Source: Deltaproteobacteria bacterium (GTDB lineage Bacteria; Myxococcota_A; Polyangia; Haliangiales; Haliangiaceae). Taken from it: DNA of 30,219 bases. Below are positions 22,680-30,206 of the stretch, piece after piece. The notes under the pieces are model-generated. The model made no database searches, had not been told where the DNA came from, and saw nothing but the letters and a program-made list of their open reading frames with translations. The DNA is taken from NCBI GenBank assembly GCA_041691735.1, contig JBEPUF010000004.1, forward strand, positions 1-30,219, given 5' to 3'. Positions within the stretch are counted from its first letter, which is position 1. Every line of letters starts with the position of its first letter. The translations under genes and the position numbers were made by a program.

Positions 22680-24161
22680 GTGACGCGTGTGGATCAAGGC
22701 AAGGACTGGAAGGGCGCCCGGCTCTACACGATCGGGCACTCGTCGCGCACGCTCGACGAGCTGGTCGCGATCCTTCGCTCCTTCGACGTCACGGTGCTGG
22801 CCGACATCCGCACGATCCCGCGTTCGCGACACAACCCGCAGTTCAACGGCGACGCGCTTCGAGCGGCGTTGCGCTCGCGTCGGATCCGGTACGTCCACCT
22901 TCCGGAACTGGGCGGCCTCCGACATGCGCGCAAGGACTCGCCGAACACCGCCTGGCGCAACGCGAGCTTCCGAGGCTACGCCGACTACATGTCGACCGCG
23001 GACTTCACGACCGGGCTTGCAGCGCTCGGCGCCCTGACCGAAAAGGGCAACGTCGTGATGATGTGCGCCGAGGCCGTGCCCTGGCGCTGTCATCGGTCGC
23101 TCGTCGCCGATGCGTTGACCGTGCGCGGCGCCCAGATCGAGCACATCATGGACGCTGCGCGCGCGCGCCCTCACCGCTTGACTCCCTTCGCCAAGGTGAC
23201 GGGCACCCGCGTGACCTATCCCGCCGAGGTCAGCGACGAGGCGGGCGCCACACGCCTGGTTACTCGGGCGCCGTTTCACCTCGAAGCGACCGTCCGCGTG
23301 TTGCAGCGGCGACCGACGAACCTGGTCGAGCGCTGGGAACGAGATCGGTACATCCGCGTGCTCGCGACACCCGGAGGTCTTGCGCTGGCGGAGGTGGAGA
23401 ATCGCGGGACGATCGATGCCCCGGACGTTCGGCTCACGGTCCGGCACGGCAAGGCCTCCGGGGTCGAACAGGTCCTGCGCACGAGCCTCGGTCTGGACGT
23501 GGACCCGAGGCCGCTGCGGCGCCTGGCCGAGGCCGAGCCCAGGCTCCGCCCCACCGCCATCGCGCTGCGCGGCATGCGACCGCCGCGGTTCACCGACCTG
23601 TTCGAGACCTTCGCGAACGTGGTGCCCTTTCAGCAGGTGAGCCTCGACGCCGGGATCGCGATCGTGGGCCGTATGGTCGAGCGCTTCGGCGAGCACGTCG
23701 AATACGACGACCGCCGGTTCCACGCGTTCCCGACCGCCGCTGCCATCGCGGATGCCCGCGTCGAGACGCTTCGAGCGTGTGGCTTGAGCCTTCGCAAGGC
23801 GCACGCGCTCCGTCAGGTGGCTCGAACGATCGCGTCGGGCGATCTGACGGCAGCGACGCTCTCCAGCCTGAGCACGAAGGATGCGCTCGTGACGCTGACG
23901 GAGCTGGTGGGCATCGGGCCGTGGAGCGCAGCACTGGTGCTGCTGCGTGGGCTCGGCCGCCTCGACGTGTTCCCGCCGGGTGACGTCGGCGCCGCGCGCG
24001 GGCTCGGTGCCGTGATGCACCTCCCGCCCGGAGCTCTCGCCTTCCAGCAGGTACTCGACCGCTTTGGTGATCGCCGCGGTTACCTCTACTTCTGCGCGCT
24101 CGGCGGCGCGCTGCTCGCCAGGGGGCTCATTCACGCAGCTCCGCAGCATCGGACGTCTTGA
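22680..24161 (+). CDS. DUF488 domain fused to AlkA-type DNA-3-methyladenine glycosylase (HhH-GPD)
   Basis: N-terminus: TIGHSSR...LADIRTIPRSRHNPQFN...ELGG.R...MCAEAVPWRCHRSLVAD. C-terminus: PFHL...QQVSL...FPT...GLSLRKA...L..LVGIGPWSA..VLLRGLGRLDVFPPGDVG. Confidence 0.9.
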   Translation: MTRVDQGKDWKGARLYTIGHSSRTLDELVAILRSFDVTVLADIRTIPRSRHNPQFNGDALRAALRSRRIRYVHLPELGGLRHARKDSPNTAWRNASFRGYADYMSTADFTTGLAALGALTEKGNVVMMCAEAVPWRCHRSLVADALTVRGAQIEHIMDAARARPHRLTPFAKVTGTRVTYPAEVSDEAGATRLVTRAPFHLEATVRVLQRRPTNLVERWERDRYIRVLATPGGLALAEVENRGTIDAPDVRLTVRHGKASGVEQVLRTSLGLDVDPRPLRRLAEAEPRLRPTAIALRGMRPPRFTDLFETFANVVPFQQVSLDAGIAIVGRMVERFGEHVEYDDRRFHAFPTAAAIADARVETLRACGLSLRKAHALRQVARTIASGDLTAATLSSLSTKDALVTLTELVGIGPWSAALVLLRGLGRLDVFPPGDVGAARGLGAVMHLPPGALAFQQVLDRFGDRRGYLYFCALGGALLARGLIHAAPQHRTS

Positions 24162-24519: not shown

Positions 24520-24563
24520 CAAACAGAACGCCCCCTATTCCTCGTCGAGGAACATGGGGCGTT
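24520..24563 (-). terminator. Probable intrinsic terminator of the sigma/IrrE operon
   Basis: Hairpin 24527-24563 with 15 of 17 stem positions paired and a 3-nt loop. On the minus strand it ends ...GGCGTT followed by CTGTTT, ~58 nt past the peptidase stop. Confidence 0.55.
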
Positions 24564-24620: not shown

Positions 24621-25433
24621 TCACCACATGCCCAGGCGCCGCCCGGCCTGCTCTGGAGCCCAAAGCAACGAGAGCACGTGTCGATGCTCGGGCAGCACCG
24701 CCGAGTGCTCCACGATCTCGATGTCCTCCCTCTTGGTCTTGATCCAGGTCGAGGCCGGCACCGGCTGCGCACGATCGTCGAGGCCGCCGTTCGCGAAGTA
24801 GTCCCACGCGACGCTGCACGGCTCCACGCGCTTCCCCGCCGGGATGTCGCGCGTGAAGGTCGCACTCCGCACGGCCTTCTGCACGAACCCGCGCGACGAC
24901 CGCACGACGGCGCACCGCTCGCTCGTCAACTCGACGAACCGAACCGCGGCGCGCGGAAGGCTCACCTTGAACTCCTGCGCGAGCGCGCGCGGGATGTCCA
25001 GGCTGACGGGCGACACCTCGCAGCGAGCGCGCAGGAGGCGGTCCGGCATCAGCAACGCGTCAGCGAACGCGTCGGCCTCCTCCTCGTGGTTGGGTTCGTC
25101 GACGCACGCCAGCGCGCGAGCGGGCGACGCGGCGCAGAGCGTCGACGCTGGCCGGCTCGGATGGTCGAGGCCGAAGTGGCCCAGTTCGTGCGCGACGGTC
25201 CAGCGGCGGAGCGCACGGTCCGTGACGCGCTCGGGCACCAAGATCATCGAGCGATGAGCGTTGCGCGCGAACTGGCCCGCCGCGCCCTCGAGCGGCGCCA
25301 CGGCGATCCTGACCCCATACGACCGCGCGATCTTCTCGACCTGGATGTCGCACGCCGACGAGATGCCGAACCGCTGGACGATCTTTCTCGCCGCGGTCTC
25401 GGCTGCGCGCTTGCGCAAGATGCGATCGGTCAC
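24621..25433 (-). CDS. IrrE/ImmA (CapP-like) Zn metallopeptidase
   Basis: RWTVAHELGH (HExxH), EEEADAFADALLMP and LAQEFKVSL..AAVRFVEL, then a GAF-like C-terminal region. GGAGG RBS and a GTGA overlap with the upstream stop. Confidence 0.9.
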   Translation of the reverse strand: MTDRILRKRAAETAARKIVQRFGISSACDIQVEKIARSYGVRIAVAPLEGAAGQFARNAHRSMILVPERVTDRALRRWTVAHELGHFGLDHPSRPASTLCAASPARALACVDEPNHEEEADAFADALLMPDRLLRARCEVSPVSLDIPRALAQEFKVSLPRAAVRFVELTSERCAVVRSSRGFVQKAVRSATFTRDIPAGKRVEPCSVAWDYFANGGLDDRAQPVPASTWIKTKREDIEIVEHSAVLPEHRHVLSLLWAPEQAGRRLGMW

Positions 25434-25819
25434 GACGCCTCCTCGTCGTGGAGCGGATACTCCAACATCTGCACGAGGCGACGCAGATCGTTGTCGCTGA
25501 GACCCGACAGCTCCTGGTGCGCGTACCGCACCGCGCCCGGGTTGGTCTCGGCGATGGCGACGATGCGCGCGAGCAAGGCATCCCGCGTCCACAGCAAGAG
25601 CTTGGCCGGCAGCGCGCCGAGCGACATCGGCTCCGGCGTCGTCATCTCGTCGAGGTATCGCGCGCGCCGGGTCGCGGCGGTCATGGCGCGGACGGCTGCC
25701 AGGATGTCGCGCTCCTGGCGACGCTCCGCACGCGTGCTCACGCTGTCGGCTTCGGAAAGCGCCACTTCGTGAAATAGCAGGTCCAGCGCGTCGAGATCGT
25801 TTCGGGTGGTCATGGTCAT
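25430..25819 (-). CDS. Hypothetical helical protein (candidate anti-sigma / protease substrate)
   Basis: AGGAG RBS 6 nt before ATG 25819. Coupled on both sides. C-terminus YAHQELSGLSDNDLRRLVQML. Confidence 0.75.
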   Translation of the reverse strand: MTMTTRNDLDALDLLFHEVALSEADSVSTRAERRQERDILAAVRAMTAATRRARYLDEMTTPEPMSLGALPAKLLLWTRDALLARIVAIAETNPGAVRYAHQELSGLSDNDLRRLVQMLEYPLHDEEAS

Positions 25820-25830
25820 GGCTCTCTCCT

Positions 25831-26484
25831 TCACTTCATCCCCCGCGCCGCGCGGCGCAAGCTGTCGGGGAGTTGCTGGACGAGCGCGGTGAGGCGAACC
25901 CGTCCGGTGTGGTAGTCCTCGGGCGTCAGATCGGTCAGCGCGAGCACGTCGTCGCGCGTCGTCGCGCCCTGCTCGATGGCGCCGACGATCGGGAGCACCC
26001 GCGGGTCGTCCCCCGCGAGCGCCCGCAATGCGGCGAGCGTCTCGACGACGACGATGCGCAGCTCGGGGCTCGACTGAGGAGTCGAGCGCGCGAGCGCCTC
26101 CGACACCTCCCCTTCGATCGTGTCGTACTCGCCGGTCTCGCTCACGCGCTCGCCGTCGAGCACGACGTGCGGCAGGTGGAGCGCGCGGGCCAGATCGTTC
26201 TTCGTGCGGAAGCGCACCACGTCGAGCACGTGCGCCTCCAGCGTCTTCTCCTCGGGATCCCAGCGCAGATCGCCGGTGAACGTGCTCACCAGTGCTTCCT
26301 GCACCAGCTCGCGCACGTAGTCATCGTCCGCGCCGCGCCCTCCCACCTTCGCGATGCTGCGCGCGCGCGACTTGGCGTACCGACGAGCGCGACCAATCAG
26401 CCGCTCGTCGGCTTGCCTCTCGTACTCTGCGAGCCACTCTTCCGTCGGCTCGAACGGCTTCCTCTTCTGCTCGTACTTCTCCAT
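25831..26484 (-). CDS. Divergent ECF-like sigma70 factor
   Basis: Region-2-like RELVQEALVSTFTGDLRWDP...HVLDVVRFRTKN and region-4-like HTH GATTRDDVLALTDLTPEDYHTGRVRL. The length (217 aa) is typical of ECF sigma factors. Confidence 0.65.
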   Translation of the reverse strand: MEKYEQKRKPFEPTEEWLAEYERQADERLIGRARRYAKSRARSIAKVGGRGADDDYVRELVQEALVSTFTGDLRWDPEEKTLEAHVLDVVRFRTKNDLARALHLPHVVLDGERVSETGEYDTIEGEVSEALARSTPQSSPELRIVVVETLAALRALAGDDPRVLPIVGAIEQGATTRDDVLALTDLTPEDYHTGRVRLTALVQQLPDSLRRAARGMK

Positions 26485-26518
26485 GACGTCGAGTCCTTCG
26501 CTTCCTTCGTACGGGCGC

Positions 26519-26535
26519 GCGTGAACCGTTCACGC
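26519..26535. promoter_or_regulatory. Perfect palindrome in the divergent control region
   Basis: GCGTGAAC-C-GTTCACGC, 35 nt upstream of the sigma-like ATG. Confidence 0.45.
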
Positions 26536-26885
26536 AGTCGTCCCGTCACGCGCGGGGTATCGGCACGCCGCGGCGACGGATTCGCGAGGCTCGCGGGTGA
26601 ACCACTTGTATAAGACGTGGAGTTGCGGGCGATTGGCGCGGAGGCTTCCGGGCGACCCGATGGCGAAGGCTGGCAAGTTTCGCCAGAGCGCTTGGATCCG
26701 CTCGGTGTCGTTCGCGAGACCCGAGTTGCCTCATCGAGACGAAGTGGGGGCGTGCACGGTTCGCGTGCCCACCGTCGAGCAGTCGCCGACGGCGGCCTCA
26801 CCCCGCCACGTCGAGGCGTGAGACGCGTTGACCATGCCGCTGGTCTCCGCCTACGGTGCGGCCGGGCAGATCTGGGGAGGTGCGC

Positions 26886-29800
26886 GTGCGAGTCATCGTT
26901 GGACGAGTGGTCATCGCCGAGACGGGTGTCGGCGTTTCTGGGGTCGTGGTGGTCGCATTCGGGAGCCAAGCAGCGTCGCCGGGAGCGAGCACGCCAGGGG
27001 GCGTACCGCGGATAGGTTCCGTCCTCACCGACGAGACTGGCGCGTTCCGGATCGAGTACGGCATCGACGGGCCCACGGCGCCAACCGGGGTGCGCGTCGC
27101 GGTGTTCGCCGACGCTGCGACCACCGATATCTCGCACGCCCTGTACGCGGAGGCGACGCCGCGAAATCCGGCCGCCGCACTGGAGTCGTACGCGATTCGC
27201 GTTCCGCAGGATCAGCTCCTCAAGAATGCGCTGCCCGCGCCGGTGCAGGTCAACGATCCGTCCCTGCGCCTCGGCGCGCAGTACGCGCTCCGCGTTCAGC
27301 TTGGCGCGGCGACGAACACCCTCATTTCAGGAGCTGGACGTCCGATCATCGACGTTGCGCGGGCTCCTCTGGCACAGCTCGGCGACCAGGTCCGTGCGGA
27401 TCTACGGGTTCGTGGCCGCGCATTCCCGGGTAGCGCCGGAGGCACGGTCCAGACGCGACTGCTCGACGCCATCAAGCGCAGCATCACGAATCGGTTCGCG
27501 TCGGCCAACCGCCGAGTGCTCTTGCAGGCTGCAGCCTCCGAACAAGCCAAGCTGAAGGTCGGCACTCAACTGACCGAGGGCGACGCCACTCCGTTCGTGT
27601 TCGGCGCGAGCAGCCTCACGCAGCGGCAATACAACAGCCTCCTCACGCCGGCGTGCCGCGACGCCCGCCTCCCCGATTCGAAATGCCCCGAAGCCGGGAG
27701 CAATGGGGGATCGGGTGGTGGCAACGGGACACCACCGCCGACCCCAACGATCGAGGACTTGGTCTGGCGCGCGCTGTCGACATCGCCTGGACTCAACGAG
27801 TCGCGGCCCGCTCCCACCGATGTCGCCCGACGCGTCAGCGGCTTGCAACTCGCGTCCGGCCCCGCCGACGTCACCGCGCTCCACGACTTCGATGTTCTCC
27901 ACCTCGCGTTCGAGAACGTGTGGGACGATCTCGTGGACGAGCAAGTGGTCGATGCCGCGACGCGGCTCCATCAAGCTGTGCTCCGTGCGGGAGGCTCGCC
28001 CCCTGGGTCCCAGAGCGGAACGATCGCGTTCTCGTTGGGGGGCACGCTCGACGGCCTGCTCTCGGAGGCGCGGGCGCTGGTCACCACGCTGCTGGACACT
28101 GTCAGCAGCTTTCTCTCACCGGTCCGCAGTCGTGGCGCGGTAGACCAGCGAAGCAACGGCGGCGGAGTCTTTGCGGGCGGACCAACGGTCGATCGCAACG
28201 GGCATCCGATCACGCCGGGCGTGCCCCCGCAGCAACAGGACAACGTCGACAACCACCGTGTTCCGGATCCCGCGTCGGACGTCCAGGCCCTTCTCGCCGA
28301 GCTCGAGAAGCTGCTCGCCGAGCCGTATCGCTTCACTGTGTTCGCCGCCGACAACACGGGCGTAGCGATCAACTTCGGCCTCATCGTGACCTATCGCCAG
28401 CGCTGGCAGCCGGTCACCTATCAGGCCGGCAAGCTCGTCAGCACGATCACGCTCGCGCCGCGCGAGGAGCGGAGCTACTCGCGCAAGACCACGGTCACCA
28501 CGCGGAAGAAGCAAGACACGTCGGAGAAGTTCCGCAGCCTCAACAAGACCGAGGAGGACATCACCGACCGCGCCGTCCGGGACATCGTGCAATCGGCGCA
28601 GTCGAGCACCGGCCTGGACGTCACCTACAGCGGCGAGGCGGTGTCGGTGACCCTGTCCCACAACGACCAGCAGAGCTCGAGCGACACCAAGCAGTCGTTC
28701 CGTGAAGCGGTCCGCCGAGCCTCTGCGGAGTACGAGAGCCAGCGCTCGGTCCAGGTCTCCTTCGAGACCACGGTCGAGACGACGACCGAGGAGATGGGGA
28801 AGATCGTCAACCCGAACGCCGAGCTCGCGGTCACGTACCTCTTCTATCAGCTGCAGCGCCGGTTCTTGGTGTCGGAGCGCATCCAGAAGCTGACTCCGGT
28901 CGTGATGGTCGCCCAGCCCGTGCCGAAGCCGTCCGACCTCACGATCAAGTGGCTCCTTCAGTACGACTGGATCCTGCGCCGCGCGATTCTCGACCCCTCG
29001 TTCATCGGCGCGTTCGACTACGTCACGCAGGATCTCGTGGGCGAGGAGTTCACGCTCGCGGTCTTGAAGCAGAACGTCGACGCGCAGCAGAAGGTCGTCT
29101 CCGAGCTGAAGGACAACCTCGCCGCCGCGCGCAACGACCTCACCTCGCGCTACCAGGCGCTCCAGAGCGCGCTCGCGATGGCGCCGACGAGCGGCGGCGA
29201 CCTGTCATGGCTGTTCGGCCTCGCGGCCAAGCTCCTGGGCCCCGACTCTAACGCCGATGCGCAGAACGTCCAGCTGCGCGAACAGATCGCGCGCGACGCC
29301 TATGATCGTGCGGTCGATGCCGAACGCTCGCTGGAGGACCAACTCGCGAAGGAGGCGTCTCTGCTCACGGTGATGACAGACAAGTGGGTCGAGGCCCAGA
29401 AGGGCTTCTTCAACAAGACGGTCGAGGTCGACCGCCTCCGCCTGCACATCAAGCAGAACATCCTCTATTACATGCAAGCGATCTGGGACCACGAGCCACC
29501 CGACCAGCGCTACTTCCGGCTCCACCAGGTTCCGGTGCCGGTGCTAGCCGGGTCGCTCTCGTACACCGTCGTTGAGGACGAAACGACGATCCCGATGCCT
29601 CCCACCTGGACCAAGCCCACGGTGCTCCAGGCCCAGGCTTCGATCACCACGGATGGCACGACCGTGCCGCTGGTCGAGATCGCCGATCTCGACAACCCGC
29701 TCGGCTACAAGGGCAACTACATGATCTTTCCGCTCGTGGAGCCGAACGTGCTCACGAAGTTCATGATGGTGCCTTATGCGAACCGAGCCAGCGGCATCCA

Positions 29801-30206
29801 GGATCCCGATCAGCCCGGCAACCTGACCCGCGCCGAGTTAGATCAATACGTCTGCTGCTTGAAGAAGAACCTCGCGGCCGCCGATCTCAACGCCCTCCTG
29901 CCTGGCATCAACGAGGCGTACCAGTGGCTCCTGTCGGATCCGAATCCTAGCGAGGAGGAGATCATCGTGCCCACCGATTCCCTCTACATCGAGGCGTTGC
30001 CCGCCGCTCAACCCGTACTCGAGGACTACCAGCTCTTGCACCGCGCCGCCGACGTCGAGCGCGTACGGATCTCGAACGCCGGCAAGAACCTGGACAACGT
30101 GCGCCACGGCGCGCGAATCCTCGGCGGCGACCTCACGAGCGACTTCGACAAGAGCATCCTCGTGGAGGGCGCGAAGGGCGTGACCGTCGAGGACGGCGAG
30201 AAGTAG
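26886..30206 (+). CDS. Large (~1100 aa) hypothetical multidomain protein
   Basis: Uninterrupted ORF (open from 26856) with normal amino-acid composition. GGAGG lies 5 nt before GTG 26886. It has an N-terminal beta-sandwich-like region (IVGRVV..ETG.GVSG..V.AF...GSVLTDETGAFRIEY), a Ser/Thr-rich central region and long coiled-coil-like helices. Confidence 0.88.
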   Translation: MRVIVGRVVIAETGVGVSGVVVVAFGSQAASPGASTPGGVPRIGSVLTDETGAFRIEYGIDGPTAPTGVRVAVFADAATTDISHALYAEATPRNPAAALESYAIRVPQDQLLKNALPAPVQVNDPSLRLGAQYALRVQLGAATNTLISGAGRPIIDVARAPLAQLGDQVRADLRVRGRAFPGSAGGTVQTRLLDAIKRSITNRFASANRRVLLQAAASEQAKLKVGTQLTEGDATPFVFGASSLTQRQYNSLLTPACRDARLPDSKCPEAGSNGGSGGGNGTPPPTPTIEDLVWRALSTSPGLNESRPAPTDVARRVSGLQLASGPADVTALHDFDVLHLAFENVWDDLVDEQVVDAATRLHQAVLRAGGSPPGSQSGTIAFSLGGTLDGLLSEARALVTTLLDTVSSFLSPVRSRGAVDQRSNGGGVFAGGPTVDRNGHPITPGVPPQQQDNVDNHRVPDPASDVQALLAELEKLLAEPYRFTVFAADNTGVAINFGLIVTYRQRWQPVTYQAGKLVSTITLAPREERSYSRKTTVTTRKKQDTSEKFRSLNKTEEDITDRAVRDIVQSAQSSTGLDVTYSGEAVSVTLSHNDQQSSSDTKQSFREAVRRASAEYESQRSVQVSFETTVETTTEEMGKIVNPNAELAVTYLFYQLQRRFLVSERIQKLTPVVMVAQPVPKPSDLTIKWLLQYDWILRRAILDPSFIGAFDYVTQDLVGEEFTLAVLKQNVDAQQKVVSELKDNLAAARNDLTSRYQALQSALAMAPTSGGDLSWLFGLAAKLLGPDSNADAQNVQLREQIARDAYDRAVDAERSLEDQLAKEASLLTVMTDKWVEAQKGFFNKTVEVDRLRLHIKQNILYYMQAIWDHEPPDQRYFRLHQVPVPVLAGSLSYTVVEDETTIPMPPTWTKPTVLQAQASITTDGTTVPLVEIADLDNPLGYKGNYMIFPLVEPNVLTKFMMVPYANRASGIQDPDQPGNLTRAELDQYVCCLKKNLAAADLNALLPGINEAYQWLLSDPNPSEEEIIVPTDSLYIEALPAAQPVLEDYQLLHRAADVERVRISNAGKNLDNVRHGARILGGDLTSDFDKSILVEGAKGVTVEDGEK

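Follow-up and report, generated by a model that had tools for sequence, protein, structure and literature searches.

IrrE/DdrO and ImmA/ImmR are protease/repressor pairs related to CapH and CapP, and ImmR/ImmA is the induction module of ICEBs1. CapH and CapP ('controller of adjacent pathways') are the closest described relatives of the locus reported here. In E. coli CapH the bond cut by CapP is Phe82|Arg83; it lies in the first helix of a C-terminal domain which mediates oligomerisation and not DNA contact, and CapH carrying R83A escapes cleavage; activation by single-stranded DNA (ssDNA) and partner cleavage are established only for the CapP of E. coli MS115-1 (Lau et al. 2022, bioRxiv 10.1101/2022.04.27.489752). 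The DNA-damage switches described for immune operons, namely CapH/CapP, CapW and CapK/CapS, all act by repressor removal, and the 2026 paper on CapK/CapS gives CapW and CapH with CapP as the only earlier controller families. The stretch of DNA analysed here, referred to as the window, has 30,219 nucleotides (nt) and is the entire contig JBEPUF010000004.1 (contig C4 in our numbering) of a metagenome-assembled genome of a member of the Deltaproteobacteria (GCA_041691735.1; 6.04 Mb, 90% complete, G+C content of about 70%). It holds three adjacent genes, hereafter the triad, which encode a sigma-like protein (gene A), a small helical partner (gene B) and a protease of the CapP family (gene C). The triad is probably a CapP-controlled sigma/anti-sigma switch, and would then act by sigma release, whereas the logic of CapH is de-repression. 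If this is true, the freeing of a dedicated sigma factor by CapP would be a route of positive, promoter-specific control.

The same output logic is known from CalpL/CalpT/CalpS, a module of type III CRISPR in which the activated protease cuts the anti-sigma, the fragment stays on a sigma factor of the extracytoplasmic function (ECF) type and ClpXP is thought to remove it, freeing the sigma (bioRxiv 10.1101/2024.05.08.593092). The likeness extends to a soluble module of three parts and to an antiviral setting. However, CalpL is a Lon-SAVED protease activated by cyclic tetra-adenylate (cA4) whereas the triad has an M78/GAF protease with a presumed ssDNA signal, and no sequence relationship was found between gene B and CalpT, a protein of 33 kDa. 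In Myxococcus xanthus the ECF sigma/anti-sigma pair DdvS/DdvA controls a CBASS-CRISPR island, CBASS being the cyclic oligonucleotide-based antiphage signalling system (Sci Adv 2024, PMC11506125). This pair shares with the triad the phylum, an anti-sigma that sits on both sigma2 and sigma4 and release by proteolysis. Nevertheless DdvA is a zinc anti-sigma that spans the membrane, carries a TPR-CHAT domain in the periplasm and is processed by RseP, with no CapP involved, and CapH and CapP go unmentioned in that paper (PMC11506125).

All three genes of the triad lie on the reverse strand. Gene A (26484..25831) encodes a protein of 217 amino acids (aa) that would be a highly divergent ECF-like sigma factor, gene B (25819..25430) a soluble helical partner of 129 aa counted from an ATG which is preceded by an AGGAGAG site, and gene C (25433..24621) a zinc metallopeptidase of the CapP family (M78/IrrE fold) with 270 aa. 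Genes B and C share 4 nt (GTGA). The gap between genes A and B is 11 nt, or turns into a 4-nt overlap with the stop of gene A if gene B starts at the alternative GTG 25834, which gives 134 aa and is the start used by the closest homologue. In CapH and CapP, as here, the substrate gene is found directly upstream of the protease gene and often overlaps it by 4 nt. The initial annotation of this DNA, made from the sequence alone, had described three coupled genes closed by a terminator. The overlaps and the short gap bear out the coupling, and the terminator stood in part: a terminator-like hairpin (24563..24527, reverse strand; 16 bp, GC-rich, followed by UCUGUUU, 58 nt past the gene C stop) was detected by folding, with z = -2.95 for a stretch of 116 nt, whereas a strict consensus terminator scan downstream of gene C gave no match. 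The same order of three genes was seen again in about 40 loci examined, so the arrangement is not due to chance.

Gene C is a CapP by every sequence criterion. It matches Pfam Peptidase_M78 (5.6e-14) and, more strongly, the PADLOC capP profile (5.9e-46), of which positions 4-241 of 242 are covered. Its sole solved relative is the CapP of Thauera (PDB 7T5T; 6.9e-16), to residues 58-280 of which residues 44-263 of gene C align, taking in the HELGH, the cysteine of the Cys switch and the Glu ligand and reaching into the C-terminal region. The HELGH of gene C corresponds to residues 82-86 (25190..25176) and the third zinc ligand to Glu117, both aligned with 7T5T, while Cys100 aligns with the cysteine that follows HELGH in 7T5T (C113) and is the candidate Cys-switch residue. 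This loop cysteine is kept in the relatives of gene C inspected and the catalytic residues are among the invariant columns of the protease alignment. An internal cysteine-switch loop is found in 33% of CBASS-linked CapP proteins, and the C-terminal region of gene C corresponds to the GAF domain of CapP (Lau et al. 2022). The triad protease and CapP therefore belong to one family, with HExxH, Cys switch and GAF region in common, and the full IrrE/CapP layout first ascribed to the peptidase, with a peptidase domain, an HTH-like linker and a GAF domain at the C-terminus, is borne out by the end-to-end capP match and by the alignment to 7T5T.

Gene B ends in a motif of the CapH type (residues 97-120, VRYAHQELSGLSDNDLRRLVQML; 25460..25531, reverse strand), and this C-terminal substrate motif is common to both systems. 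It can be written [F/Y/H/W]-R-[D/N]-hydrophobic-x-x-[L/M]-[S/T]-x-x-D and was found with identical spacing in 28 sigma-linked partners and in 17 canonical XRE CapH proteins; canonical CapH reads ...L-F-R-D-F-x-x-L-S-x-x-D-R-E... and the partners ...A-H-R-D-L-x-G-L-S-D-x-D-L-R... In hhalign the partner and CapH profiles were aligned over 53 columns (E 2.9e-4, probability 41%), and the profile alignment sets the 'TRDALLARL' helix of the partners on the last helix of the CapH helix-turn-helix (HTH), 'TTDYLLGR'. The gene order, the identity of the protease and this shared motif are read directly from the sequence. An invariant aromatic-Arg pair in the CapH alignment agrees with the described cut at Phe82|Arg83, a placement on the motif that relies on published residue numbers. 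When the CapH site is mapped onto the motif in this way, the predicted scissile bond of gene B is His101|Gln102 (codons 25519..25514), and the motif would thus give mutagenesis a definite cleavage site to address. Since gene B shares with CapH the C-terminal motif at which CapP cuts, it looks like a CapH whose DNA-binding head has been swapped for sigma-binding helices. In the proteobacterial partners L080, L095 and L097 (L numbers designate the loci compared) the predicted cut is preceded by ...T-M-A-A|R; cleavage there would expose a C-terminal -AA that resembles the ssrA end and may act as a built-in degron in a second step.

The sigma-like identity first given to the 217-aa protein finds agreement in its predicted structure, where both sigma2 and sigma4 folds are present. 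The AlphaFold2 model of gene A, built from an alignment of seven rows, has a predicted local distance difference test (pLDDT) score of 74.5 and consists of two helical domains, a predicted sigma2-like one at about residues 14-109 and a predicted sigma4-like one at about residues 137-215. The top Foldseek matches of the model were the ECF sigmas SigH, SigL, SigE-ChrR, AlgU-MucA, sigmaE-RseA and BldN, with weak E-values. In an exhaustive structure alignment residues 14-109 retrieved SigH (Z 9.2) and RpoE-NepR (Z 8.4), and residues 137-215 retrieved sigmaE region 4 on DNA, CnrH, SigD4 and SigR region 4 (Z 5.5-6.9). The stretch ELVQEAL...WDP...LEAHV..V.R.RTKND in gene A resembles region 2 of sigmaE by eye, and the size and make-up of the protein (217 aa, with sigma2 and sigma4 alone in the predicted model) fit the layout of ECF, or group 4, sigma factors. 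A word-indexed homologue search had returned just seven sigma and two partner matches; an exhaustive profile search corrected the size of the family, with at least 3,114 clusters at E <= 1e-3 for a profile of 11 members run against 1.84 billion representatives. Among 51 sampled family members four matched Pfam Sigma70_r2, the best at 1.5e-6, and two relatives of gene A match Pfam weakly (L024 with r2 at 0.03 and L023 with r4_2 at 0.011). The sigma-family profile searched against the PDB gave designed repeats and one weak ECF match (0.081) and nothing else, and tblastn of gene A against plasmid and phage collections gave no match. From these models and profiles we conclude that gene A is likely a sigma factor of the ECF type, though a very divergent one.

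Gene B differs from CapH in lacking an XRE HTH and in having an N-terminus which is predicted to bind the co-encoded sigma. Neither an HTH nor any known anti-sigma family was found in gene B and 29 relatives with Pfam and NCBIfam, and family scans gave no HTH/XRE match in gene A, in gene B or in the small intergenic open reading frames; for gene B itself Pfam, NCBIfam and PADLOC all came out empty. These scans agree with the earlier remark that no XRE/HTH repressor adjoins the peptidase and that a small helical protein takes its place. Gene B also has no Cys/His zinc motif, and the ASD/zinc HxxxCxxC, RskA and NepR signatures were unmatched in 30 partners. In its AlphaFold2 model two N-terminal helices (residues 6-24 and 30-58) are joined by a linker to a small C-terminal helix-extended-helix unit, for which weak structural matches of the SAP, LEM and Rho-N kind were obtained (Z 4.3-5.6). 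The prediction of the complex of genes A and B reached an interaction prediction score from aligned errors (ipSAE) of 0.85 in three runs vs 0.01 for the best of three controls; of the solved complexes 58 of 80 attain this mark, of the mismatched pairs 2 of 110, counts which are approximate because our own alignments were used. The predicted sigma-binding helices, residues 8-51 of gene B (25667..25798, reverse strand), would contact residues 18-104 of the sigma2-like and 138-202 of the sigma4-like part of gene A. That the small protein binds a partner, as had been supposed, is therefore confidently predicted, with gene B placed between sigma2 and sigma4, and the predicted arrangement is the classical geometry of anti-sigma binding.

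NepR and CnrY are small soluble helical anti-sigmas of the kind predicted for gene B, wedged between sigma2 and sigma4 and having neither a zinc motif nor a membrane span. Structures with short anti-sigmas (5uxx, 3t0y and 4cxf) were among the structural matches of gene A. Nevertheless what lifts the inhibition by NepR and CnrY is partner switching (PhyR) or membrane signalling and not a dedicated co-encoded M78 protease, and unlike gene B they are without a C-terminal domain of the CapH type.

The mechanism that we propose is the following. The two N-terminal helices of gene B would wedge between sigma2 and sigma4 and keep gene A inactive. DNA damage or phage activity would give rise to ssDNA, which would activate the CapP encoded by gene C, and the activated protease would cleave gene B close to His101|Gln102. 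The N-terminal fragment that remains would then lose its oligomerisation or be degraded by housekeeping proteases, a removal modelled on the proposals made for CalpT and RseA. Finally the freed sigma would steer RNA polymerase both to the promoter from which it is itself expressed and to those of the cargo. In this scheme the sigma fold and the sigma-partner complex come from structure prediction, and we infer the cleavage, the activation by ssDNA, the second degradation step and the genes regulated.

Several observations weigh against a sigma-release switch. Gene A itself has no Pfam, NCBIfam or PADLOC match, and Sigma70_r2 and Sigma70_r4_2 were unmatched at E up to 1; its structural Z-scores are middling (5.5-9.2), although both domains give the same answer, an ECF sigma, despite this. 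E. coli CapH could not be aligned to the motif through the PDB chain of the CapH C-terminal domain, either as a single sequence or as a profile. The residue at P1', which on this mapping corresponds to Arg83 of CapH, is Arg in 24 of the 28 partners, Lys in one and Leu in two, and Gln in gene B of the window, a residue shared at this position with one further Kofleriaceae partner. Moreover the predicted cut lies about 50 residues from the sigma-binding helices, so that cleavage alone would not obviously free the sigma. No consistent sigma-type promoter motif was found across the triad loci: a sigma70-type promoter scan found none, the stretches that precede the sigma genes, aligned with MAFFT, had nothing conserved, the DNA upstream of the closest homologue showed no similarity to that of the window triad, and an enumeration of bipartite motifs returned solely the GATCG repeats upstream of an element operon described below. 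In 7 of 33 loci a GAA-N1-3-TTC palindrome precedes the start of the sigma gene by 30-60 nt (1.6 vs 0.7 per kb overall), an interval that was chosen post hoc, and it is not relied on here.

The distribution of the triads was assessed in the 80 nearest CapP loci from a scan of GTDB species genomes with the CapP alignment, in which the gene upstream of the protease was typed by profiles. This gene was a canonical XRE CapH in 29 loci and a partner and/or sigma-like gene in 26, four more triads being recognised by eye; CapH and the sigma/partner types were together in none of the 80. The CapH profile used for typing, which matches P22 C2, ImmR, DdrO and the solved CapH HTH (7T5U), had no match in any triad locus. 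Triads were found in Myxococcota, Verrucomicrobiota, Nitrospirota, Acidobacteriota, Bacteroidota and Ignavibacteriota, and also in Chloroflexota, Thermodesulfobacteriota and Alpha-, Beta- and Gammaproteobacteria. The closest protein relatives of the window come from Kofleriaceae (Myxococcota), and a second, paralogous triad exists elsewhere in the same genome (contig C413). On a quick protease tree with SH-aLRT (approximate likelihood ratio) support only and a midpoint root, the partner type was strongly clustered, with five label changes vs 25.6 in shuffles, and a single origin of the triad type among the proteases is compatible with this tree. At one myxococcal locus (L022:9202-10241) a sigma-like gene and a partner are present with no CapP behind them and the sigma frame runs into the partner gene; this is a copy in decay or else a pair that does not depend on the protease.

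Defence cargo, which the initial annotation had advised looking for around the triads, was indeed present. PADLOC was applied to the divergent neighbours of four triad loci, all outside Myxococcota. Divergent from the triad L111 are genes for a phospholipase, a CD-NTase and an E2 protein, that is a type II-short CBASS; from L040 a CD-NTase; from L087 the PycC and PycTIR of Pycsar (pyrimidine cyclase system for antiphage resistance); and from L041 an E1-E2-like protein. Relatives of the triad are thus placed divergently from CBASS or Pycsar as CapH and CapP are. Table S1 of Lau et al. 2022 (bioRxiv 10.1101/2022.04.27.489752) lists 24 CBASS systems as 'Sigma-70 present' beside capH and capP. In these rows there is one gene between the cyclase and 'capH', and the numbering fits the order sigma, 'capH', capP; the CBASS-divergent triads match them. 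A sigma-releasing CapP would explain these entries, which Lau et al. left open. Whether the triad was undescribed, which the initial annotation could not confirm, has a qualified answer: one sentence and a table note in Lau et al. 2022 touch on it, but a full-text literature search found no paper that characterises a CapP, IrrE or ImmA protease acting on an anti-sigma.

The genes that the window triad might control are less clear. Between gene A and a divergent gene lies an intergenic region of 401 bp (26485..26885), with a near-palindrome at 26517-26535 (GCGCGTGAACCGTTCACGC), a related one at 26750-26768 (GCGTGCACGGTTCGCGTGC) and a half-site at 26592-26603 (CGCGGGTGAACC). Read outward, both near-palindromes give GTG[A/C]AC, a spacer of 14-15 nt and CGT[A/C], which resembles a -35/-10 pair of the ECF type; over the longer reading GCGTG[A/C]ACGGTTC...CGT[A/C]GA they are identical at 21 of 29 positions. 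They are the sole matches with up to two mismatches within the 30-kb window, a result equalled by 13 of 100 shuffles. As a lead from the sequence, they are candidate twin ECF-type promoters, serving the triad on one side and the cargo on the other, or else operators, the spacer being 1-2 nt shorter than usual.

The divergent gene (26886..30206, forward strand) encodes 1,106 aa, or 1,116 aa from GTG 26856, and the contig ends 13 nt past its stop. Its product had no match in Pfam, NCBIfam or PADLOC and an atlas search retrieved 'hypothetical protein' clusters only; by eye the N-terminus is CarboxypepD_reg-like. Its family comprises at least 606 proteins, found in Myxococcota, Actinomycetota, Acidobacteriota and Gemmatimonadota. 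In the three other contigs examined a gene of about 580-600 aa always follows the homologue and there is no triad nearby, so that a link between triad and 1,106-aa gene would be specific to the window locus; one relative adjoins Macro and SIR2 genes. No copy of the partner gene of about 590 aa was found in the 90%-complete assembly. The initial annotation had proposed that the protease frees the sigma from an anti-sigma and that the sigma then switches on the divergent operon. The first part is in keeping with the sigma folds, the predicted complex and the CapH-type motif. The second part found no support, given the homologues of the 1,106-aa gene that lack a triad and the myxococcal triads that usually head another operon, and the 1,106-aa gene is only a possible target of the triad.

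These data lead to the alternative which survives best, namely that the mechanism is the same but that the window triad either stands alone as an orphan or is left over from the regulatory head of a myxococcal integrative element, with no functional link to the 1,106-aa gene. The sigma would then act on its own operon only, or in trans on element genes located on other contigs. Triads of Myxococcota usually head a conserved operon that starts with overlapping genes of about 305 and 333 aa, continues with four to five small genes and ends with genes for an M23 or SLT cell-wall hydrolase, an excisionase-like protein (HTH_17) and a tyrosine integrase. This operon was found at L025:10001-20657, at L033, L042, L019-L021 and L028 and on contig C413 of the same assembly, where the paralogous triad is linked to it, and further genes of the integrase-linked element are on contigs C257 and C279. 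These facts, together with the three contexts of three in which 1,106-aa homologues occur without a triad, favour an orphan. Nevertheless controllers of the CapH/CapP type are portable and sit beside many unrelated cargos, two related outward-facing motifs are present in the intergenic region, one ahead of each gene, and all three triad genes are intact. An orphan or remnant is therefore a possibility to be kept in mind, but a somewhat unlikely one.

Under a sigma-release switch that does serve the divergent gene, the cleavable module of CapH would have been joined to a sigma-binding peptide, where it serves as a portable 'cut-here' handle, giving positive controllers in many phyla and placed here ahead of a widespread pair of uncharacterised genes of about 1,100 and 590 aa. 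We regard this wider proposal as doubtful, but if it is true the two genes would form a new system for defence or suicide that is induced by DNA damage. A portable triad can also flag unknown cargo, such as the 1,106-aa family in the window and the integrase-linked operon in Myxococcota.

The near-palindromes of the intergenic region are typical of dimeric repressors, and gene B might itself be a DNA-binding repressor, with a SAP/HeH-like C-terminal unit or an undetected fold, that is removed by CapP while the sigma-like protein is a separate activator or a passenger. The CapH-like C-terminal domain of gene B, its weak resemblance to SAP, LEM and Rho-N and faint Pfam hints of LEM and Ish1 point the same way. 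However, none of 30 partners has an HTH, the C-terminal domain which gene B shares with CapH serves there for oligomerisation and not for DNA contact, the N-terminus of gene B is confidently predicted between sigma2 and sigma4, and wherever the HTH is absent the sigma-like gene is always present, all of which makes a repressor very improbable. Even less credible is a module that signals by partner switching, in which gene A, not being a working sigma factor, would serve as decoy or adaptor in the manner of the PhyR sigma-like domain. Gene A is indeed extremely divergent, with no Pfam match for the window copy, and the PhyR domain bound to NepR is among its structural matches (3t0y, Z 7.1). However, it lacks a receiver and any other output domain, it belongs to stand-alone sigma2-sigma4 proteins of 200-230 aa like ECF sigmas, its region 2 is sigmaE-like by eye (LVQEAL...WDP...H..D..R) and members of its family match Sigma70_r2 and r4_2.

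Returning to the myxococcal operon, Pfam and PHROGs matched solely M23, SLT and an HNH-like neighbour in it. The whole resembles a small integrative element of unknown type, for which the triad would serve as induction switch as ImmR/ImmA does for ICEBs1. The 220 nt upstream of the gene of about 305 aa (L019, L020, L021, L025, L028 and contig C413 of the same assembly) carry GATCG(C/G) repeats in 4-8 copies each. Pairs of GATCG 14-18 nt apart were present in all five operon leaders, vs four sequences at most in shuffles. The repeats may be iterons, operators or methylation sites.

Two further observations concern the surroundings of the window triad. An AT-rich island (26604-26616, CTTGTATAAGACG) adjoins the half-site CGCGGGTGAACC in an intergenic region of 70% G+C. 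It could be a housekeeping -10 element, and would provide basal transcription either way. On the other side of the triad, and convergent with it, a gene at 22680-24161 that follows an aconitase gene after 6 nt encodes a fusion of DUF488, AlkA_N and HhH-GPD according to Pfam. A neighbour of the DNA-repair type next to a presumed sensor of DNA damage is probably a coincidence.

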